DNA of 64,000 bases from Clostridia bacterium (GTDB taxonomy: Bacteria > Bacillota > Clostridia > TANB77 > CAG-508): NCBI GenBank assembly GCA_017626365.1, contig JAGAIV010000013.1:6826-70825 (forward strand), written 5' to 3'. The translations under genes were made by a program, and so were the position numbers. Under the pieces are notes generated by a model. That model was not told the origin of the DNA. It made no database searches and saw nothing but the letters and a program-made list of their open reading frames with translations. This document shows positions 1,888 through 46,723 of this stretch, piece after piece. The number at the start of each line of letters is the position of its first letter. Within the stretch, counting starts at the first letter, position 1.

Positions 1888-2821
1888 TTGTTGGAAAGAG
1901 TATTAACACGGGGAAGAAAAGATAAGACGCGCAGAAGAAATTTATGAAAGAAGAAAGAATGGATATGCTTATGGAAGAGATAATAGAGTAGCAACAGTAA
2001 GAGTAAAAGAAGAAAAAAACTTTTCTTTATTTAAAAAGATGTTTTTACAAATTGCTATTTGTTTAGTTATTTACTTTATCTTTTATTTAATTCAGAACAG
2101 CAATTATATCTTTTCTGAAGAGGTTCTAGAAAAAACAAGACAAATCCTTTCATACGATATTGATATAGCAGGTATGTATGAACAAACCATGCAATTTATT
2201 TCTAAACAAATGGAGGAGCTTACCATAAACGAATCCCGAGAGGAAAATACCATACAAAGCCAAACAGATACTAACACAGTAACACAAAATGAGGAAGCAA
2301 ATGAAAATCTTCTACAAGAAAGTAATGGAGTGGGAGGAGCAGAATTAGAAAATGTAGTGATGGAAGAACCGATAGCTTTAAACGATACAGCACAAGAACA
2401 AATTCCTGAGACAGATGAACAATATTTGAAAAACAATTTTTCTTTTATCAAGCCAATAGAGGGTGTGGTTTCTTCGGAATTTGGACAAAGAGAATCAAGC
2501 AATCCAATTGTTAGTACAAACCATACGGGGATTGATATTGCAGCAAATACTGGAACGGTAGTAAAAGCTGCGATGGAGGGAACTGTGACAATATCTAGTA
2601 CAGTAGGAGATTATGGCTATCATATCAAAATTACAAATAATGACGTCAGTACACTATATGCTCATTGTAGTAAGTTATATGTAAAAGAGGGAGATACGAT
2701 ATCTCAAGGACAAGAAATAGCTGAAGTAGGTTCTACCGGAAAATCAACAGGACCACATTTACATTTTGAAATCATGAGAGGCAGCACGTATATTAACCCA
2801 AGAAGCATTTTAGAATTTTAA
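1888..2821 (+). CDS. M23/LytM peptidase, SpoIVFA-like, N-terminus reconstructed across a +1 C at 1909
   Basis: HTGIDI...HLHFEI catalytic motifs are present. The upstream frame LLERVLT[CGG]GEEKIRRAEEIYERRKNGYAYGRDNRVATVRVKEEKNFSLFKKMFLQ is continuous with the track ORF 2039..2821 if c1909 is removed. It sits directly 5' of a SpoIVFB-like gene. Confidence 0.55.
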
Positions 2822-2870
2822 TCCGTATGGGACGACGCTCTCGTTGGACCGCAAATAAAGGAGGCAACAA

Positions 2871-3524
2871 ATGACGATAAAAATCAATTTAAAAATATTT
2901 CTGTTTGCTATTATTTTTTACTTAACCAAACAAATCCATCTTTATGGCATGTTAATGTTTTTTGCATTCTGTCACGAAATGGGACATTTATTTTGCGGGT
3001 TGCTGTTGGGATTAAAACCCAAAGCATTAAAGATTATGCCAATGGGATTAAGCGTTGAATTTAAAGTTTTACCAGAGGAATATAACAAAAAAATAGCAAA
3101 AGCAAATAGATTGCAAATAAAGAAAATGTGGATTGCTTTTGCTGGACCTATTACTAACATGATAATAATATTGTTGTCTGTTCTTTTAAAAGAAAATATC
3201 GAAACAGGACTTTATCAAGAGATCGTTTATTCGAATATACTAATTGCTATCTTTAATTTATTGCCAATTTATCCATTGGATGGAGCAAGAATGATAAAAG
3301 CATTGACATATATGATAAAAGGAAGAAAAAGAGCAATGGAGTTAACAAATCATATATCCAACGTTAGTATTATTTTACTAACAATGATTTCGAGTATAGC
3401 AATTTATTATTATAAAAATATTGCAATTTTATTGATTATAGGATATTTATGGAGTATGGTCATTATAGAAAATAGAAGATATAATCTAAAAAAGAGAATC
3501 GATAAAATCATAGAAAATAGTTGA
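2871..3524 (+). CDS. site-2 zinc metalloprotease (M50), SpoIVFB-like
   Basis: HEMGH motif in TM helix 1, several TM segments, LPIYPLDG motif. RBS aaaggaggc. Confidence 0.65.
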   Translation: MTIKINLKIFLFAIIFYLTKQIHLYGMLMFFAFCHEMGHLFCGLLLGLKPKALKIMPMGLSVEFKVLPEEYNKKIAKANRLQIKKMWIAFAGPITNMIIILLSVLLKENIETGLYQEIVYSNILIAIFNLLPIYPLDGARMIKALTYMIKGRKRAMELTNHISNVSIILLTMISSIAIYYYKNIAILLIIGYLWSMVIIENRRYNLKKRIDKIIENS

Positions 3525-3577
3525 AATAAAATAAATTTCATAGTAAGATATACATAGGAAAAATGGAGGAAATGCAA

Positions 3578-5128
3578 ATGATAAAATTAACGAAAAAGAA
3601 TCAAAAAGGAATTACTTTAGTAACACTTTCTATTGCTATTATTATTATGCTAATTATAACAGCAACGTTAGTATACAATATTACAACAGGTGCTAAAGTA
3701 AGAGCCTTGAATAATATGTATCAAGATGTTACGAAAATAAAAGATAAAGTGGATTTGTATTATGCAAGTCATCGTACTATTCCAATATTAGAAACTAAAT
3801 ATGAGAATGTTACGCACTTGCAATCAATTAATCCAAACGATAGTAGTACATATTATGTAGTGGATTTGGAGGCTTTAGAAAATTTAAATTTAATATATGG
3901 TAAAGATTATAATACTTATAAGACAGCTCCATCGAATCAATTAACAGACATTTATGTGATAAATGAGAAAAGTCATAGTATTTACTATGTAAAAGGGATT
4001 TCGCTTGATAATAATATGTATTATACCATGCCAGAAGAAAGCACAAAAGTTACAGTAAATTCAATTACAAGTATACAAAATGTAAAAATGGACCAAAATA
4101 TTGCAGTTGTAAGCATTAATGCTGCCAATAAAGAGAACGGAATTACACAAATAAAATTAATTGTAAATGATCAAGAATACAAAACATATGATTATACTTC
4201 GAACTGGAAAGAAGCAAAAACAGAGACATTAAATATGACATTAGCTTTTGGAAAAGACTATGTTTGCTATCTTCAAATGACAGATGAAGAAGGAAATACA
4301 ACCACATCTGATAGTGTTACCTTACAAAATTTAACAACAATTGCAACCGTAGAAGATTTACAAAACCTAGCAACACTAGTAAATGATGGAACGAACACAT
4401 TTAGTGGACAAACCATTAACTTAATTAATGACCTTGACTTAAATGGAAGTGAAGATAATCAGTGGGTACCAATTGGAAATATCAATTATGCTTTTAGTGG
4501 AATATTTGAAGGAAATGAAAATAAAATTTCAGGAATATACTGCACAACAGAATTAGAATATACAGGTCTTTTTGGAGCTGTAATTGATGGAAAAATAAGG
4601 AATCTAGGAATAGAAAATATAATTATTAAAAATAATGGTGGTTGTTCGGGAGGAATTACAGGACTTTTGTGGAATAGTGAAATAATTAATTGTTATGCAA
4701 AAGGTAATATTAGTGCGAGTCTTGCTGGAGGAATTAATGGATTTTCTCAAAAAGGAGCAAAAATAACAAACAGTTATCATATTGGAAATGTAATAGGCAA
4801 TGCAGAAAGCTATCCTATAGCAGGAGGAATTGTAGGACGAAATTATGAAATGGTAGAAAATTGTTATCATGTTGGAAATATAGATATAAATACGGGTGAA
4901 AGAAAAGGCGGAATTATTGGATTTAATGTAGATGGAGATGCTAAAAATTGTTATTATTTACAGTCATCAACAGTGACTGGAGGAATACAGCTAAGCGATA
5001 TAGAAGGAAAGGCAGAAGGAAAAACACAGGAACAATTGAAATTGTTAGCAGGAACATTAGGGAGTGCTTTTAAAACAGATACAAATAATATTAACGATGG
5101 TTATCCAATCTTAACATGGCAAGAATAA
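3578..5128 (+). CDS. prepilin-like N-terminus (MIKLTKKNQKG|ITLVTL...) fused to a GLUG-motif repeat domain; surface or pseudopilin-like protein
   Basis: Short basic leader, Gly, then a hydrophobic helix (class III signal-peptide-like, Thr at +5). The C-terminal half has repeats of type AGGIVGRNYEMVENCYHVGNI (GLUG-like). The track start at 3563 overlaps the RBS. Confidence 0.5.
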   Translation: MIKLTKKNQKGITLVTLSIAIIIMLIITATLVYNITTGAKVRALNNMYQDVTKIKDKVDLYYASHRTIPILETKYENVTHLQSINPNDSSTYYVVDLEALENLNLIYGKDYNTYKTAPSNQLTDIYVINEKSHSIYYVKGISLDNNMYYTMPEESTKVTVNSITSIQNVKMDQNIAVVSINAANKENGITQIKLIVNDQEYKTYDYTSNWKEAKTETLNMTLAFGKDYVCYLQMTDEEGNTTTSDSVTLQNLTTIATVEDLQNLATLVNDGTNTFSGQTINLINDLDLNGSEDNQWVPIGNINYAFSGIFEGNENKISGIYCTTELEYTGLFGAVIDGKIRNLGIENIIIKNNGGCSGGITGLLWNSEIINCYAKGNISASLAGGINGFSQKGAKITNSYHIGNVIGNAESYPIAGGIVGRNYEMVENCYHVGNIDINTGERKGGIIGFNVDGDAKNCYYLQSSTVTGGIQLSDIEGKAEGKTQEQLKLLAGTLGSAFKTDTNNINDGYPILTWQE

Positions 5129-5141
5129 AACTAAAAATTTG

Positions 5142-5206
5142 TTTGACAAATACATATAAATATGATAGAATAAGCAATGTTTGAAAAAAAGCATTGCTTT
5201 TTTCCT
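5142..5206 (+). promoter_or_regulatory. sigma-A promoter (TTGACA-17-TAGAAT) followed by a leader hairpin upstream of rpsF
   Basis: TTGACA at 5142. Hairpin aagcaatg/cattgctt plus T6 in the 5' UTR. rpsF leaders that bind S6:S18 are known in Firmicutes. Confidence 0.45.
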
Positions 5207-5254
5207 TACTCATACAAAGGGAGTATGGGTTATAAGCCATAAGGAGGTGAAATA

Positions 5255-5539
5255 ATGAACAAATACGAGAGTGTTATCATTATTAATCCAAGTTTAGAAG
5301 AAGAAGGGTTAAAAAAACTTGTAAAAAAATTCTCAGACTTGATTAATAGTGACGGAAAAGTAGAATCCGTAGAAGAAATGGGAAAAAGAAAATTAGCTTA
5401 TGATGTTAAAAAGAACAAAGAAGGATACTATGTTTTATTTAATTTCGAAGCAAAACCAGAACTAATTGCGGAATTAGAAAGAAATTACAGAATTACAGAC
5501 GAAGTAATTAAATTTATCGTTGTAAAAAAAGAAAATTAA
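5255..5539 (+). CDS. rpsF: 30S ribosomal protein S6
   Basis: Typical S6 sequence and strong RBS. Confidence 0.9.
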   Translation: MNKYESVIIINPSLEEEGLKKLVKKFSDLINSDGKVESVEEMGKRKLAYDVKKNKEGYYVLFNFEAKPELIAELERNYRITDEVIKFIVVKKEN

Positions 5540-9499: not shown

Positions 9500-10673
9500 C
9501 TATTCATTTACTTCTTCTAATTTTTCAGATTTTTCTTTCCTAAAACTCAAATGTAGCAAAATTGGTGTGATGAACGTAACTAAGAATACTGTTATAACAA
9601 TAATTGAGAATACTTCCTCATTAATCATTCCAATTTGTTTTGCTTCATCAATCATAATAAAAGCCATTTCGCCACGGGTGGCCATTCCGATACCAATTTG
9701 TAAGCACTCTTTTCTCTTATAACCACATAATTTAGCACCAAGACCATTTCCGATTACTTTACTAAGAATGGTAATAACAGTAAACAAAATGATAAACTGC
9801 CAAACGTGATCTGTAAGAGATAATGTTGTTAGTTTTAAACCAATGCTTGCGAAGAAAATAGGGGAAAATAGCATATATACTAATACATCAATCTTATTTT
9901 TAATAAATTTTCCTTGCTTGGTATTTCCAACAACAAGTCCTGCAATATAGGCTCCAATAATACCACTAACTCCTAACGCTTCTGCAAGGTAAGAAAGAAG
10001 AAGTGCAAAAGAAAGTGAGAATATAGGTAATTCTTCTTTTCTTGGAAGCTTTGATTCTAACCATTCCATAAATTTAAACATAACAAGACCGAAGAGCGAT
10101 AGCAATGGCAAAAAAGATGATTACTTTTATAACTAATAAACAAATTGAAATAAAGGAAAAGTTTCCGTTATTTAAAATTAAAGTTAAGAAAACAACGCCA
10201 ATAATATCGTCAACAACGCCAGCACCTAAAATAGCTGTACCAACATTGGTTTTTAATTTTTTCATTTCAATTAAAGATTCTACTGTAATACTAACAGAAG
10301 TTGCAGTAATTACAATTCCGAAAAATAGATTTAAAGAATTATCAAGAGTATAAAATTTACTAAATAAAAACCCAAATAATAAGGGAATAATAACTCCAAT
10401 ACTTGCAATAATTACAAATTTTTTAGTACCTGCCATAAATTTTTTTAGACTTGTTTCCATGCCAGCTAAAAACATAATGAAAATAATTCCCAAGTTTGCC
10501 AAAAATTCTAAGATAGGATTAGATTGAATGATATTGAAAATAGCAGGACCTAATACAACACCTGCAATTAATCCACCAAGCATTTTAGGCATATGTATTT
10601 TTCCAGTTATCATACTAAAAAGTTTAACGAAAAGTATAATTAATCCAATATCCAATAAATATTTGTAATCCAC
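9500..10673 (-). CDS. CPA2-family cation/proton antiporter, reading frame interrupted once
   Basis: Multi-TM Na+/H+ exchanger-like sequence split into ORFs 10074..10673 and 9500..10111. The junction resolves by removing one C at CTT CGG TCT (plus 10069-10071). A T6 run at 10090-10095 is an alternative site. Confidence 0.7.
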
Positions 10674-13656: not shown

Positions 13657-15121
<1,465 letters not shown>

Positions 15122-15986: not shown

Positions 15987-16424
15987 TTATAATAATTGAT
16001 GTATCTTTTTACGTGAATCTGTTTCTAAAGCATAAACAGTATCAATATCGGTTCGTAAGTCTTTAATATCTTTTTGAATACTAGAAAGAGTATTTTGTAC
16101 CTGAGAAATAGTATTGTCAAATTTCTTTTCAAGATTAGAAATAGATTCTCTAATTTCAATATGCTCTTTGTGATTTTCTTCGTAATGTCTATCCACTTTT
16201 TCATTCAAAGAATCAAACTTTTTATCTAGGCAATCATATTTATTATTTAGACAATCATATTTATTATTTAGACAATCATATTTCTTATCTAGGCAATCAT
16301 ATTTTCCATCTAAAGATTTATATTGCTCAAATAGCATAGTTTGGTTCTGAGATAATGTTAAAGTAGTTTGGTTAATTTGTTTAAGCATATCAATGATATA
16401 AGACATGTTTTCTTGGTTTTCCAT
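15987..16424 (-). CDS. coiled-coil protein with four 7-aa (21-bp) tandem repeats (KYDCLNN/KYDCLDK)
   Basis: Perfect RBS aaaggaggtga. 21-bp DNA tandem repeats at 16222..16305. Confidence 0.5.
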   Translation of the reverse strand: MENQENMSYIIDMLKQINQTTLTLSQNQTMLFEQYKSLDGKYDCLDKKYDCLNNKYDCLNNKYDCLDKKFDSLNEKVDRHYEENHKEHIEIRESISNLEKKFDNTISQVQNTLSSIQKDIKDLRTDIDTVYALETDSRKKIHQLL

Positions 16425-24474: not shown

Positions 24475-24515
24475 TTGAATAGTTTTAAAACAAAAATTAA
24501 AGGAGGTTGTTTTTG

Positions 24516-26687
24516 GTGAATAAAACTATTAAATTAACATGTATTGTATTAATTTTAATACTATTAATGGTGCAATTTTCAACAATTGCATATGCAATTG
24601 AAGATACTACACCACCTAACATTATTTCTGTTTCATCAGATAAAAATGTTTTAAAAACAGGAGAAACTATTACTTTTAATGTGGAAGTAGAAGATGATAT
24701 TTCAGGAGCTAAAAGTTTTTTTGTACAATGGAATTTAAAAACAGATAACACTAAAACAATAACTAAACAATATGATTCTATGCAAGATGTTGGTACATAC
24801 CAATATACTATACCTGAAAATACAACTGCAGGAAAATGGGAAGCAACATATATTTCTATAAGTGACAATATGAATAATGCAAAATTTTACAATAAAAATG
24901 GATTAGACGATGGAATACTATCAAAATTTGATTTTACAGTAGAAGATACTAATCAAGATACAGAGGCTCCAATTGTAACTAATGTAAAAAGAATTACGAC
25001 TAATATTACTGCACCAGGAGAAGTTGTAGTACAATATGATATTGTAGATAATAACTCAGGTGTACAACAAAATGCTGGTGGAGTTACATATAGTCCAGCA
25101 AACGATTTATCTAGTACTATGGCTGGAAGTACGGAAAAAATAAGTGGAAATACGTATCAATCTACATTTTATTTAAATTCACAATATGAAAAATATGTAT
25201 TTGCATACATACAAGTATGTGATAATGCAGGAAATTGGAAAAACTACACAAATACAGACTTAGGTCTTACAAATGAATTAGATATAATTCCAAATAACTA
25301 TAAAGAAGACAAAACAGCACCAAAGCTTGTTTCAATAGATTATGATACAACAGAAGTGCAAATTCCAGATTATTTACAAGTTACATTTGATATAGAAGAA
25401 AAGGAATCAGGACTAAATAGTTTTCTAGGAAGAGCGTATTTTAAAAGCGATGATGGTAAATATGATAAGGAATTAATTATATCTAAAGCAATAGATAGTA
25501 ATGGAGCTTATATTGAAAATAAAGGTTCTGCTAGATTAGACTTTGGAGATGCAGAAACATTTAGAGGAGAAATATATTTATATAAAATAACATTAACAGA
25601 TGTGATGAATAATACAAAAACTTATTCATTAGAAAAAGGAGACTTTACAAAGCAAGAAATTAAAATTTCTAAAGTTGAAAAAAATTATACCCTTACAACA
25701 TCTAGTACTAAAAAAGGTTATATAAATGAAATATCAGAATTGCCAGAAGGTAGTACAGTACTATGCAATGTATTAAGAGGAAATCAAACTATAGAAAAAG
25801 AATTATTTGATGCAATAAAGGGAAAGGACATAACAATTACTTTTATGAGCCTTTACAATGCCAATTGGGAAATTAGCAGTACACTTGGTGAATTAAGTTC
25901 AAGTGACACTAATACAGGAATACAATGGATTATAAATGGTAAAGATATTATTAATGAAACAAAAGATGTTGATATGACAATAAAAATTAGTAAAAAAATA
26001 TATAGTAAATATATTCTTCCAGAATATGAAATAAATGAAAATTTAGAAATAGATTTTTGGAATAATGTAGATTTAGATAATATGAGTGAAGAGGAAATTC
26101 AAAGTAAGAGAAAAGAGTTAGTAAAATTGCAAGAAGAAGAAATCAAAAAATATTTTGATAAATTAAAACAAGATGGATATACAAATATAGACGAAGCCTA
26201 TAAAAATGCACTAGAGTTAATAGATGAAGATGTTGGATATGATTGTAAAACAGCAATAATAGATTCTAATGACTATGTTGAATATTTAAGCATAAAATTT
26301 GCAGAAAATGGAACATTACCTTGTAAAACAATTATAAGAATGAAACCAACATATGCAATGAGAGCATTAATAGGTGCAAAAGATTTAAATTTATATTATA
26401 TAGATGGAGAAAGTTATGATTTAGTTGATGATAATGTTAAAGTAGACTCAGAAAAATACTATAATTTTACAATATATCATAATAGTGAATATTGTTTAAC
26501 AAATGGTTTAATTGAAAAATTAGCTAAAGCGGAGAATACAAATAACACTGAAAATGTAGAAAATGAAAAAAAAGGTGAAAAAGATAATACTCCAAAAACT
26601 GGGGAAATAGATATAATAAGTTATGTGATATTAACAACAGTTATAGCGGGTATAGGAATAGTAGCATTAAAGAAAAAATTAAATTAA
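24516..26687 (+). CDS. sortase-anchored surface protein with three Ig-like repeats and a C-terminal TPKTG sorting signal
   Basis: N-terminal signal peptide. C-terminal NTPKTGEID, hydrophobic segment, KKKLN tail. Repeats start (T/E/K)TAP... The GTG start at 24516 follows the RBS aaaggagg. Confidence 0.6.
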   Translation: MNKTIKLTCIVLILILLMVQFSTIAYAIEDTTPPNIISVSSDKNVLKTGETITFNVEVEDDISGAKSFFVQWNLKTDNTKTITKQYDSMQDVGTYQYTIPENTTAGKWEATYISISDNMNNAKFYNKNGLDDGILSKFDFTVEDTNQDTEAPIVTNVKRITTNITAPGEVVVQYDIVDNNSGVQQNAGGVTYSPANDLSSTMAGSTEKISGNTYQSTFYLNSQYEKYVFAYIQVCDNAGNWKNYTNTDLGLTNELDIIPNNYKEDKTAPKLVSIDYDTTEVQIPDYLQVTFDIEEKESGLNSFLGRAYFKSDDGKYDKELIISKAIDSNGAYIENKGSARLDFGDAETFRGEIYLYKITLTDVMNNTKTYSLEKGDFTKQEIKISKVEKNYTLTTSSTKKGYINEISELPEGSTVLCNVLRGNQTIEKELFDAIKGKDITITFMSLYNANWEISSTLGELSSSDTNTGIQWIINGKDIINETKDVDMTIKISKKIYSKYILPEYEINENLEIDFWNNVDLDNMSEEEIQSKRKELVKLQEEEIKKYFDKLKQDGYTNIDEAYKNALELIDEDVGYDCKTAIIDSNDYVEYLSIKFAENGTLPCKTIIRMKPTYAMRALIGAKDLNLYYIDGESYDLVDDNVKVDSEKYYNFTIYHNSEYCLTNGLIEKLAKAENTNNTENVENEKKGEKDNTPKTGEIDIISYVILTTVIAGIGIVALKKKLN

Positions 26688-26756
26688 TTTGTTAATAATA
26701 TAGGAGTAGTGATTTAAGTTACTACTCCACTTTTAATAAGAAAGGTATTTATAAAA

Positions 26757-27530
26757 ATGAAATCAAGACATGGCAAGCGAAGTAATAATTTAAAGAAGAT
26801 AATTCTGATAATTTTAATAATAATTATTATACTTAGCATTAGTTATATGGTGTACTATTTTTACAATAACTATAAAAATAAAATAGATAATACTGATATA
26901 TTAAATAATATTGAAATAGATAAGACACAAATGACAGAACAAAAGACAGAACGTATGCTACAAATTGAAGAACTACAAAAGAAAAATCAAGAAATTATGG
27001 GTTGGTTAGAAATTGAAGGAACCAATATTAATTACCCAGTATTACAAACTAATGATAATGATTTTTATTTAACTCATAATTATAAAAAAGAAAATGCTAG
27101 TACTGGTAGTCTATTTTTAGATAAAGATTTCGATTTAATAAATGGTAGTTCTAATTATTTGATATATGGACATAGAAACAAGCAAGGATTAATGTTTGAA
27201 GATTTAATGAAATATGCAAAAGAAGATTTTTATAAGGAACATACTAAAATAAAATTTACTACCAATAAAGAAGAGAGTACTTATGAAATAATGTCAGTAT
27301 TTTATTCAAGAGTATATTATAAAAGTGAACAAAATGTATTTAGATATTATTATTTTGTAAATGCTAATAATGAACAAGAATATAACGATTTTGTCAATAA
27401 TGCTAAAAAAGCAAGTATTTATGATACTGGTGTTAATGCGAATTATGGAGAGCAACTTTTGACATTATCAACTTGTGAATATTCTCAAGAAGATGGAAGA
27501 TTTGTTGTAGTAGCTAAAAAAATAAATTAA
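26757..27530 (+). CDS. srtB: class B sortase
   Basis: N-terminal TM, YGHR and TLSTC motifs. Adjacent to a (S/N/T)PKTG substrate. Confidence 0.75.
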   Translation: MKSRHGKRSNNLKKIILIILIIIIILSISYMVYYFYNNYKNKIDNTDILNNIEIDKTQMTEQKTERMLQIEELQKKNQEIMGWLEIEGTNINYPVLQTNDNDFYLTHNYKKENASTGSLFLDKDFDLINGSSNYLIYGHRNKQGLMFEDLMKYAKEDFYKEHTKIKFTTNKEESTYEIMSVFYSRVYYKSEQNVFRYYYFVNANNEQEYNDFVNNAKKASIYDTGVNANYGEQLLTLSTCEYSQEDGRFVVVAKKIN

Positions 27531-31295: not shown

Positions 31296-31766
31296 ATGAA
31301 AAAAATAGGAGAAAAAGGGATAACTCTAACAACATTGGTGATTACGATTATTGTTCTTATAATTATTACATCTGTTGGAATTTATACAGGAACAGAAGTT
31401 ATTAAACAAGCAAATTTACAAAATATTAATACAAATATGATGCTAATACAAGCGAAAACAAAAACGATTTCAGAGCAAGCAAAATTTAATAAAGATACTT
31501 CAAATTATAAAGGAACTAAGCTTACGGATATAACAGGAAATGAGAAAATAGATAAATTAGTAACAGACAATATAATAGATGACAAAGAAAACTACTATTT
31601 ATTACAACAATCCGATTTAAATGAAATGGGATTAGAAAAAATAAGTTTAGAAGATGGATATATTGTAAATTATAGTACAAACGAAATTATATATGTAAGA
31701 GGATTTGAAGCAAATAATAAAACATATTATAAACTTTCCGAAATGAAAGATTTAAAAATAGAATAG
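31296..31766 (+). CDS. prepilin-like small protein (MKKIGEKG|ITLTTL...), paralogous N-terminus to the 3578 protein
   Basis: Short basic leader, Gly, then a hydrophobic helix. Promoter TTGAAA-17-TATAAT upstream. Confidence 0.45.
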   Translation: MKKIGEKGITLTTLVITIIVLIIITSVGIYTGTEVIKQANLQNINTNMMLIQAKTKTISEQAKFNKDTSNYKGTKLTDITGNEKIDKLVTDNIIDDKENYYLLQQSDLNEMGLEKISLEDGYIVNYSTNEIIYVRGFEANNKTYYKLSEMKDLKIE

Positions 31767-44571: not shown

Positions 44572-46723
44572 TTATATTATCATATGATAAATCAAAGTAG
44601 TACACATACAAATAATAATACCACAAGCTGTTGGAAGTAAGAAAGAAATAATTGCCCATTTCCAACTACCAGTTTCTTTTTTTATAGTAAGTAATGTAGT
44701 ACTACATGGAAAATGAAGTAGTGTAAAAATCATAACATTAATAGCAGTTAAAATCGTCCAACCATTTTGTACTAAAATATTTCCAATCATATAAATATCT
44801 TCCAAATGAACTAAACTTCCTTTTGCCATATAACTCATTAAAATAATAGGAAGCACAATTTCATTTGCAGGAAGCCCCAAAATAAAAGCAGTTAAAATGT
44901 AACCATCTAATCCCATTAACCTAGCAAATGGGTCTAAGAAGAGTGCAATGTGTGTTAGAATACTTGCACCACAAATGTTAATATTCGCAAATAACCAAAT
45001 AACAATGCCAACAGGAGCGGCAACAGCAATAGCTCTTCCTAAAACGTATATGGTTCTATCTAATAAAGAACGCACAATTACTTTACCGATTTGTGGTTTT
45101 CGGTAAGGTGGTAGTTCTAAAATGAAAGAAGAAGGTAGCCCTTTTAGGATAGTTTTCGATAGAATTTTAGAAACGACTAACGTTAGATAAATACCAAGTA
45201 AAATAACCAATAGTACAGCAAGAGTAGATAAGAGTGATGCTTTTAAGCCGGTAGTAATGCTCCCAATAAAAATACTAGCAATTGTAATTAAAAAAGGAAA
45301 TCTGCCGTTACAAGGAACAAAAGCATTGGTGAGAATGGCAATTAATCGCTCCCTTGGGGAATCTATAATTCTACAACCTACAACACCGTGCTGCATTACA
45401 GCCAAATCCCATGCACATGGTAAGTGCTTGTTTTCCCGTTGTGCAAGCTTTTTTAAAGTAGTTATCTAAGTTAAAAGCAATTCTTGGTAGGTATCCTAAA
45501 TCTTCTAAAATCGTAAATAAAGGAAAAAAAATCGCCATAGGTGGTAGCATAACGGAGATTACCCACGAAACGGTTTGAAACATTCCATTTATCAGTATAC
45601 CAGTTAACCAGCTAGGAGCATTAAGGTTATCAAAAAGAATGAGTAATTTTTCTTGGAGGTAACCAAAAAAATTAGATAGTACAGTAGAAGGATAGTTTGC
45701 TCCTGTAATGGTAATCCAAAAGATAATTCCTAAGAAAAGAATCATAATGGGAATACCGAATTTTTTAGAAGTTAGAATTTTATCAATTTTTCGGTCTCGA
45801 TTGGAATGAGCAATCGATTCATAAATAACAACATCATTGCAAATATCTTCTGCACGAAAGACAATACTAGAAACTATTTTATCGCGAAAGTTCGTATCAT
45901 CAATATCATTGGCGTGCAGTAATTCTGTTACTTCTTCTAATTTTTCTTGTAAATTTTCATCTAAAAATGAAATGCAAAAATTCTTTTCAATAGAAGAAAG
46001 AATCGTTTTCTCTCCATCGATAAGTTTTAATGCCGTCCATCTGGATAAATGAGTTTGCTCATTTGGAAGAAGCTTTTGAAGATTTGGTTCTAGCATTAGA
46101 AGGCAATCTTCAATAATAGGGTGATATTTGACAAGGTTTGGTTTGCAAACAATTTCGCCAGAAGCTACTTTTATGATGGTGGATAAAAGCTTGTTTAAGG
46201 TTTTCTTTTTTCTAGCAGTTGTTCCTACAACAGGAACTCCTAAAAGTTTTGAAAGCTTTTCTAAATCGATTTGAATATGTTTCTTTTTTGCTTCATCTAG
46301 TAAATTAACACAGACAACTACTTTATTAGTAATTTCCAATGTTTGAAATACGAGGTTTAAATTCTTCTCTATACAAGTAGCATCTAAAATGATAACAGTG
46401 GTATCTGGATTACCAAAACAAATATAGTCTCTTGCAATTTCTTCTTCTTGAGAATTAGACATAAGTGAGTATGTACCTGGAATGTCAACAAATAATAGAT
46501 TTTTTCCATTATGTATGCAAGTTCCACAAGCATTACTAACTGTTTTTCCTGGCCAATTCCCTGTATGCTGATGCATGCCAGTTAAAGCATTAAAAATAGT
46601 GCTTTTTCCAACATTCGGATTTCCGAGCAAGGGCAATGGTGTAATCACAAGATTTTTGCAAGAGAAGCATATCATCTTCTAATAAGTTTGCTCCGCAAGA
46701 ACTAGCGGTAAGCCCCATAATAT
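44572..46723 (-). CDS. feoB: ferrous iron transporter FeoB, reading frame interrupted twice
   Basis: With one C removed at GCT CGG AAA (plus 46623-25) the N-terminus reads ...DYTIALAGNPNVGKST. With one C removed at GCA CGG TGT (plus 45386-88) it reads GFGCNAAGVVGCRIIDSPRERL, and the GTPase joins the membrane domain. The upstream ATG at 46723 has RBS aaggag. Confidence 0.8.

Follow-up and report, generated by a model that had tools for sequence, protein, structure and literature searches.

Two genes within a 64,000-nucleotide stretch of DNA from the metagenome-assembled genome of a Clostridia bacterium (contig JAGAIV010000013.1; the whole stretch is referred to here as the window, and has a G+C content of 29%) code for proteins of 516 and 156 residues, and we regard it as secure that both carry at their N-termini a module derived from type IV pilins that positions the remainder of the chain on the outer side of the membrane. 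The module consists of four parts – a basic leader ending in Gly, a hydrophobic helix of 22 residues (alpha1N), an amphipathic helix (alpha1C), and a small beta head – and has Thr at position +5 after the putative cleavage site, where pilins carry Glu (Glu5). Both genes belong to a lineage-specific, pilin-derived family of uncultured gut Clostridia (order TANB77, CAG-508 and relatives), in which the module is joined to a wide variety of C-terminal domains. Our preferred reading is that these are pilin-like, processed surface-display proteins, modular and without Glu5, and we give it a probability of about 0.5.

Two genes encode a common N-terminal module

The features of the two genes are as follows.

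3578..5128, + strand: coding sequence of a modular pilin-like GLUG protein, 516 aa, J6A04_01785 (open reading frame and translation; 100% match to an NCBI hypothetical protein)
3578..3610, + strand: class-III-like leader MIKLTKKNQKG, 11 aa, net positive, Gly at -1 (sequence)
3611..3676, + strand: hydrophobic alpha1N ITLVTLSIAIIIMLIITATLVY, Thr replacing Glu at +5 (sequence)
3578..4036, + strand: pilin-like module, residues 1-153, with helix 9-65 and a small four-strand beta head (AlphaFold, hhalign, PDB profile matches)
4061..4330, + strand: Ig-like beta-sandwich spacer, residues 162-251 (AlphaFold strands, Foldseek)
4349..5125, + strand: GLUG-repeat right-handed beta-helix passenger, residues 258-516 (Pfam Glug, Foldseek)
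4634-4714, + strand: best Pfam Glug stretch, residues 353-379 (Pfam)
31296..31766, + strand: coding sequence of the module-only paralogue, 156 aa, J6A04_01940 (open reading frame; 100% identity to the NCBI entry)
31296-31319, + strand: small-protein leader MKKIGEKG (sequence)
31320-31385, + strand: small-protein alpha1N ITLTTLVITIIVLIIITSVGIY, Thr likewise at +5 (sequence)

Both open reading frames (ORFs) are real genes with starts supported by ribosome binding sites, GGAGG at 3566-3570, 7 nt 5' of the ATG at 3578, for the large gene, and GAGG 5' of the ATG for the small gene, whose stop lies 10 nt before rnhB. An earlier note on this DNA had proposed a prepilin-like N-terminus with Thr at +5 on the 516-residue GLUG protein, and we find the leader, the Gly, I-T-L (KG|ITL in the large protein), and the 22 hydrophobic residues straight after the putative cleavage site in both ORFs. 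These are the only two class-III-like N-termini in a six-frame translation of the window.

AlphaFold models of both proteins (pLDDT 88 for the large and 89.5 for the small) begin with a helix of about 57-60 residues and continue with four short strands that form the small beta head. In the large protein the helix spans residues 9-65 and the head extends to about residue 150, followed by a beta-sandwich (162-251) and a beta-helix (279-461), and residues 1-153, 162-251, and 258-516 are predicted to fold independently; in the small protein, helix 6-65 is followed by a short helix and the four strands. Foldseek relates the middle domain to FN3, CARDB, and SoxY-type sandwiches, and the C-terminal part to pectate-lyase-type beta-helices and to the IgA1 protease of streptococci and Gemella (7uvl, 6xjb). 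Pfam Glug (PF07581) scores 35.2 bits on the large protein, above its cut-off of 20.5, in two stretches, and both the GLUG repeats that had been read from the letters and their likeness to IgA-protease-like proteins are borne out, in that the beta-helix resembles the IgA1 protease domain.

The small gene at 31296 had also been put forward as a paralogue. BLASTP aligns the small protein along its full length with residues 4-153 of the large one, although weakly (30% over 152 aa, E 0.16); hhalign of the large-family profile (first 165 residues) against the small-family profile gives 98.6%, E 7.6e-16, over 134 columns. By this profile comparison the small protein is truly paralogous to the large one's first ~150 residues, with homology extending past the N-terminus. 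In 24 of 52 members of the small family Pfam gives a weak match to Cwp6_N (best E 2.8e-4), a domain from the N-terminus of the cell-wall protein Cwp6 of C. difficile, and this may be a clue to the binding partner of the small beta head.

The module is related to the N-terminal helix of type IV pilins

A profile built from 14 diverse modules was compared with the PDB and matched the Geobacter pilin PilA-N (9egp_A, E 5.4e-6, profile positions 1-68), the major pseudopilin GspG of a type II secretion system (5wda_A, E 7.5e-4, positions 12-73), and a second geopilin (7tgg_A, E 0.004). The alignments extend beyond the hydrophobic part and through the amphipathic alpha1C ('D..l.k.(v)d.YY...(g).P'), which carries the pattern '...D..L..K...YY..(G).P' of pilins and pseudopilins. 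Several pilin N-termini are also among the weak PDB matches of the small-family profile. These comparisons indicate that the module is homologous to type IV pilin alpha1, and the two N-termini, which the earlier note had likened to class III signal peptides, are pilin-related and not merely hydrophobic. Pfam N_methyl is a recurrent weak match in the family (12 of 45 and 22 of 52 members, best E 0.002), NCBIfam gives weak matches to prepilin-peptidase-dependent pilins, and some homologues are named PilE, FimT, or 'type II secretion system protein' by JGI or NCBI.

The same homology bears on whether these might be ordinary Sec-secreted proteins with a signal peptide cut by signal peptidase I. 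Such a protein would likewise start with a basic segment and then a hydrophobic one, but here the hydrophobic stretch is 22 residues long and continues as a predicted helix of 57, the region is homologous to pilin alpha1, and there is no AXA-type site or lipobox downstream. We consider this reading extremely improbable, and both it and a lipoprotein reading were rejected on the missing AXA site, the missing lipobox, and the excessive length of the helix. A Flp/Tad pilin was rejected as well, as the sequence is G|ITLVTL and not G|XXXXEY, and the mature module, at about 140 aa, is too large.

The N-terminal motif is conserved in position as well as in sequence. In 1.4 Mb of DNA from related loci, 74 copies of it lie no more than 45 residues from an ORF start and 6 lie elsewhere, with shuffled sequences leading to an expectation of about 10 anywhere; the occurrence is far above chance, and since the loci were picked for carrying the family, the count is a measure of positional specificity and not of frequency. 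Among 67 non-redundant relatives I/V at +1, T at +2, L at +3, L at +6, T at +9, and I at +15 are strongly conserved and +5 is variable, and the residues at +1 to +3 are near-invariant among paralogues that are just 30-40% identical elsewhere. Gly is at -1 in all 67, as the regular expression that selected them requires, and a few other homologues have Ala there.

The module heads a large family with exchangeable C-terminal domains

A HMMER search with the module profile returned 3,282 cluster representatives at E<=1e-3 (clusters at 50% identity), 509 of them at E<=1e-30. In every one of these ~3,282 representatives the module is N-terminal, and the proteins range from 122 to 972 aa, with about one in seven of the best matches consisting of the module only. 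The passengers include Glug, FGE-sulfatase-like, Big_2, RCC1 propeller, CBM26, GH20, Listeria-Bacteroides repeat, MBG, and RHS domains, which are typical extracellular binding or enzymatic domains.

A scan of GTDB species genomes yielded 80 loci, all in metagenome-assembled genomes of uncultured gut Clostridia (from chicken, rabbit, sheep, mouse, and human), three of them from Candidatus Scatovivens, a member of family CAG-508 in order TANB77 (PMC13106387). In 25 loci a family gene occupies the same position as the large gene of the window, between an M50 gene (usually with an M23 gene before it) and rpsF-ssb-rpsR, and the RpsF, Ssb, and RpsR proteins are 66-99% identical to those of the window, which would put the window within order TANB77 or close to it. 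These positional orthologues of the large gene vary from 142 to 728 aa, and their C-termini are unrelated even in the closest relatives. In some loci two or three family genes lie side by side with similar modules and different C-termini (L046, 1965-12155; L031, 7926-11602; L063, 8115-11040), which suggests local duplication together with swapping of passenger domains.

In searching the literature with N-terminal motif strings such as GITLIAL and GITLVTL we found no paper, and what is new here is a very large, lineage-restricted, and uniformly Glu5-less family of modular pilin-like proteins that is annotated as hypothetical. The earlier note's description of a pilin-anchored GLUG protein as an uncommon architecture was overstated: the modular pilins PilB and PilC of S. 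sanguinis are established (PMC9934059), and a canonical GFTLIE pilin N-terminus is fused to GLUG in another spore-forming Firmicute (P0067), which shows that a pilin-GLUG combination is not unique to the Glu5-less form. In the locus that contains P0067 (L214; 2415-2771, 7345-8718) a 118-aa N_methyl pilin is encoded a few genes downstream of rnhB, an arrangement that echoes the rnhB neighborhood of the small paralogue.

Processed pilin or retained membrane anchor

In our preferred reading the helix of the module inserts with the N-terminus inside and the C-terminus outside (N-in/C-out), and everything past the helix is outside the cell. The 516-residue protein is then a 'modular pilin' that presents at the surface an Ig-like spacer and a GLUG beta-helix, a fold also found in adhesins and the IgA1 protease, as a putative adhesive or binding domain, and the 156-residue protein is the bare module. 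A prepilin-type peptidase with its gene elsewhere would cut off the leader at KG|I. Since Glu5 is lacking, as it is in tip subunits such as GspK or S. sanguinis PilA, the proteins would be expected to act as tip, priming, or non-polymerizing pseudopilin-like subunits, at the end of a filament or in a short pseudopilus that tolerates the loss of Glu5, and not as a canonical major pilin. The motor for assembly would presumably be the Tad-like one of TANB77 described below.

Several observations weigh against this. Glu5 is the most conserved residue of pilins, and in more than 200 homologues +5 is T, S, A, or V and essentially never Glu; the exceptions are one Asp and one Glu, the latter in P0067, a canonical pilin that was retrieved through its GLUG domain. 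Pfam N_methyl (PF07963) scores 13.1 bits on the large protein, with a gathering threshold of 21.2, and does not match the small one; nowhere in the family does it reach threshold, and none of 100 relatives is matched at E<=0.001, which we attribute to the missing Glu5. A Foldseek search of the small-protein model against the PDB returned no match.

The genes for a pilus machine are also not found nearby. A motif scan of the whole window detected no Walker A motif of the PilB/CpaF kind and no GxGDxK, and T2SSE, T2SSF, and Peptidase_A24 have no Pfam match on the called genes from about -6.4 to +15 kb and from +21 to +73 kb; the part of the window at ~15-21 kb, which lies outside the precomputed Pfam coverage, was read as ORFs and by motif scan. 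Scans for Walker A, GxGDxK, generic P-loops, and the ParA/TadZ KGGxGK motif were negative throughout the 1.4 Mb of the 80 related loci, and phmmer with a full Firmicute Tad locus (L105; ATPase, TadB, TadC, A24 peptidase, and TadE-like protein) matched none of the ORFs of these loci. Within 10 kb of the family genes in more than 80 loci, including six further contexts, no pilus ATPase, platform protein, or A24 peptidase was detected, and the family genes are orphans among housekeeping genes. The statement in the earlier note that the window lacks pilus-assembly genes therefore stands, on the motif scan and on the Pfam matches available. That note had opposed its prepilin reading to a plain signal-anchor with no N_methyl match in a genome with no prepilin peptidase, and about half of this picture is seen: N_methyl is below threshold in the large protein and absent from the small one, and no prepilin peptidase was found in the window, its flanks, or the related loci, whereas the profile matches relate the N-termini to pilins.

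Lastly, in 13 of the 25 positional orthologues the N-terminus is a generic basic-plus-hydrophobic segment with no Gly boundary and no I-T-L (L044, 5932-6330; L051, L064, L065, L075-L077, L079, L081, L084, L086, L089, and L090). These 13, which include Ca. Scatovivens, are module-only proteins of 142-152 aa that retain alpha1C and the head. The motif is thus not essential for the module, and function as a polymerizing pilin is hypothetical.

The findings above would fit a protein that is derived from pilins and is no longer one, in which an uncleaved (type II) signal-anchor tethers the GLUG domain or the bare head with no filament machine, and in which the KG-ITL motif is a relic or a helix-packing element. 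The absence of Glu5 throughout the family, the sub-threshold N_methyl scores, the scattering of the genes among housekeeping genes with machinery nearby in no context, and the 13 orthologues in which an ordinary signal-anchor precedes an otherwise intact module all favor it, as does the fact that no canonical Glu5 pilin is seen in the 1.4 Mb of related DNA from the 80 loci. The behavior of the motif itself is harder to reconcile with such an anchor, for which a Gly at the boundary is needless. Among the positional orthologues the N-terminus exists in two states, with the motif either fully conserved (G-1, T+2, and L+3 being near-invariant where it is present) or replaced by an unrelated segment, and this pattern speaks against drift and for a motif that is under selection where it occurs, as a signal for processing or packing, while indicating that the module is able to work as a plain anchor. 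A Tad-like machine is, moreover, reported in 95% of TANB77 species (PMC11680825). On balance we judge an uncleaved anchor to be somewhat unlikely.

For the processed pilin that we prefer, the machine just mentioned is the candidate, and the only one known for the order. The cluster is reported in 122 of 129 TANB77 species (Kim et al. 2024, PMC11680825) and comprises CpaB, TadZ, CpaE, a 640-aa TadA, a fused TadBC, and seven 'pilin-like' proteins with a single transmembrane (TM) helix that pilin models do not recognize (PMC11680825). No prepilin peptidase is listed in it (PMC11680825), which adds to the points against cleavage of the leader by such an enzyme. A metagenome scan with an AT-rich GGTGSGKTT pattern for TANB77 TadA returned ABC transporters and Flp-type Tad loci, and did not return the cluster with fused TadBC; the genuine Flp loci obtained in this way read KG|QALVEY.

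Many family genes adjoin a site-2 protease gene

The large gene follows two genes for membrane-associated proteases, and the arrangement recurs in related DNA.

2039..2821, + strand: membrane-anchored M23 peptidoglycan endopeptidase, first gene of the order M23-M50-module-rpsF (Pfam, NCBIfam, synteny)
2871..3524, + strand: site-2 protease (S2P), Peptidase_M50 (HEMGH ... NLLPIYPLDG), 54 nt upstream of the GLUG gene (Pfam M50)
S2P-module contexts: window 2039-5539; loci L012-L091; L215 9179-11677

For 40 of the 85 family genes in the 80 loci, the gene immediately upstream, in the same orientation and separated by 4-218 nt, encodes an S2P. This is seen in two unrelated contexts (M23-M50-module-rpsF-ssb-rpsR and pyrH-frr-uppS-cdsA-RseP-module-aspS) that involve two S2P paralogues only 27% identical to each other. 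The type A enzymes, the kind found in the window, have 204-225 aa and are named SpoIVFB by JGI; type B is a PDZ-less RseP (TIGR00054, 225 bits) within pyrH-frr-uppS-cdsA-rseP, followed by a family gene that bears the motif and by aspS. A homologue search with the upstream M50 protein returned solely close relatives (63-76% identity).

Site-2 proteases, such as RseP and SpoIVFB, cut N-in helices near the cytoplasmic face of the membrane, which makes a functional link with the module conceivable, and the S2P upstream of the GLUG gene is possibly linked to it in this way. The proteins could then be substrates or partners of an enzyme that cuts their N-in TM helix, serving as leader peptidase at KG|I or else freeing the passenger from the membrane. 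The frequency of the adjacency, its occurrence in two unrelated contexts with different paralogues, and the known cleavage preference of RseP and SpoIVFB speak for this, and the topology signals of the module are compatible with a single-pass N-in substrate; it would also be in keeping with the lack of a named A24 peptidase in the TANB77 cluster (PMC11680825). Against it, no S2P gene adjoins the small paralogue or roughly half of the family genes, the adjacency count reflects mostly one inherited synteny block, and the type A adjacency persists where the motif has been lost. The name SpoIVFB given to the type A enzyme belongs to a protease with its own known substrate class. We know of no precedent for maturation of pilins by an S2P, and we consider such a role quite unlikely.

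A further scheme would combine these elements with our preferred reading: a TANB77 filament or pseudopilus built of wholly Glu5-less, scattered, and exchangeable modular pilins, with leaders cut by PDZ-less S2Ps in place of an A24 peptidase and with assembly by the Tad-like motor. We hold this to be very unlikely.

Comparison with known systems

In its architecture the 516-residue protein follows the 'modular pilin' principle (PMC9934059), and also that of Tad pili, whose modular tips can be exchanged (PMC12075869). Both modular pilins, S. sanguinis PilB and PilC among them, and tip pilins without Glu5 are established (PMC9934059). PilB and PilC share with the large protein an N-terminal pilin moiety, a bulky C-terminal adhesive module, and a monoderm host (PMC9934059), but they have canonical class III signal peptides, Glu5, and a location in the pil operon beside the machinery, whereas the large protein lacks Glu5, is encoded by an orphan gene, and carries an Ig-like domain with a GLUG beta-helix as its passenger.

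The tip and priming pilins that do without Glu5 (GspK/PilX-type K subunits and S. sanguinis PilA) resemble the module in this respect, are often missed by N_methyl and PilFind-type tools, and have no need of Glu5 at the tip site. In contrast to the family described here, in which all members seen are without Glu5 and no Glu5-bearing partner pilin is seen in related DNA, they are single exceptions among pilins that have it. Archaeal proteins with class III signal peptides, including the sugar-binding proteins of the Sulfolobus bindosome, combine a K/R-G|hydrophobic cleavage site without Glu5 with large extracellular domains; they differ in being processed by PibD/FlaK and assembled by Bas or archaeal pilus systems. 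The Glug repeats and right-handed beta-helix of the passenger are shared with GLUG surface proteins and with the streptococcal IgA1 protease (PF07581; 6xjb, 7uvl), which have Sec signal peptides and LPXTG, SLH, or T9SS anchors, as opposed to the pilin-like anchor seen here, with no protease domain.

It is likewise established that Tad pili can have exchangeable modular tip pilins whose genes lie apart from those of the machine (PMC12075869). These minor pilins (the Kil Tips of M. xanthus and TadG) are alternative modular subunits that confer exchangeable functions on the filament, and some are encoded in clusters remote from the machine (PMC12075869); unlike the proteins here, they are of TadE/F/G type with predicted A24 sites and a diderm host. 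The 'pilin-like' proteins 932-938 of TANB77 (PMC11680825), which we compare with the module by description only, come from what we infer to be the same order and have a short tail in the cytoplasm, a single TM helix, and a domain on the outside, and they too are missed by pilin HMMs (PMC11680825). They are, however, located in one conserved cluster with CpaB, TadZ, CpaE, TadA, and fused TadBC, whereas the two genes of the window lie elsewhere, beside S2P/rpsF and beside rnhB.

Implications

Tools for finding pilins (N_methyl and PilFind-type rules) depend on Glu5, and a family of ~3,300 clusters escapes them, so that the pilin and surface-display repertoire of TANB77 is systematically under-annotated. 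TANB77 is a prevalent, uncultured gut order that has been linked to the response to checkpoint immunotherapy through its 'pilin-like' proteins (PMC11680825), and in these organisms the family would add many candidates for surface antigens and adhesins. For the field of type 4 filaments the question is whether an entire family of Glu5-less pilins is workable in bacteria, as it is in archaea, or whether pilins have been recycled into membrane anchors. The recurrent S2P neighborhood offers a lead toward the missing processing enzyme.

Other features of the window

A 726-aa surface protein encoded within 24507-27530 ends in TPKTG, a hydrophobic stretch, and KKKLN, corresponding to an (S/P)PXTG-type signal for clostridial sortase B, and the next gene encodes a sortase (26757-27530), so that a conventional route for anchoring proteins to the wall is available to the cell as well. 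On the reverse strand at 15987-16424 (-) a 145-aa ORF contains five tandem copies of the heptad KYDCL(D/N)(K/N) (GKYDCLDKKYDCLNNKYDCLNNKYDCLDKKFDSLNEKVD) between coiled-coil-like flanks.

Three genes on the reverse strand each appear split into two overlapping or abutting ORFs: an alpha-amylase at 13818-14946 (-) (124 + 286 aa), a Na+/H+ exchanger at 9500-10673 (-) (203 + 199 aa), and FeoB at 44572-46675 (-) (434 + 277 aa). All three splits are called alike in independent assemblies, and they are likely to be real frameshifts or pseudogenes, or natural two-part genes, and not errors of one assembly. A HicA/HicB toxin-antitoxin pair (L001, 3484-4087) lies outside the window, some 6 kb before its first position, and adjoins topoisomerase and HD-domain genes.

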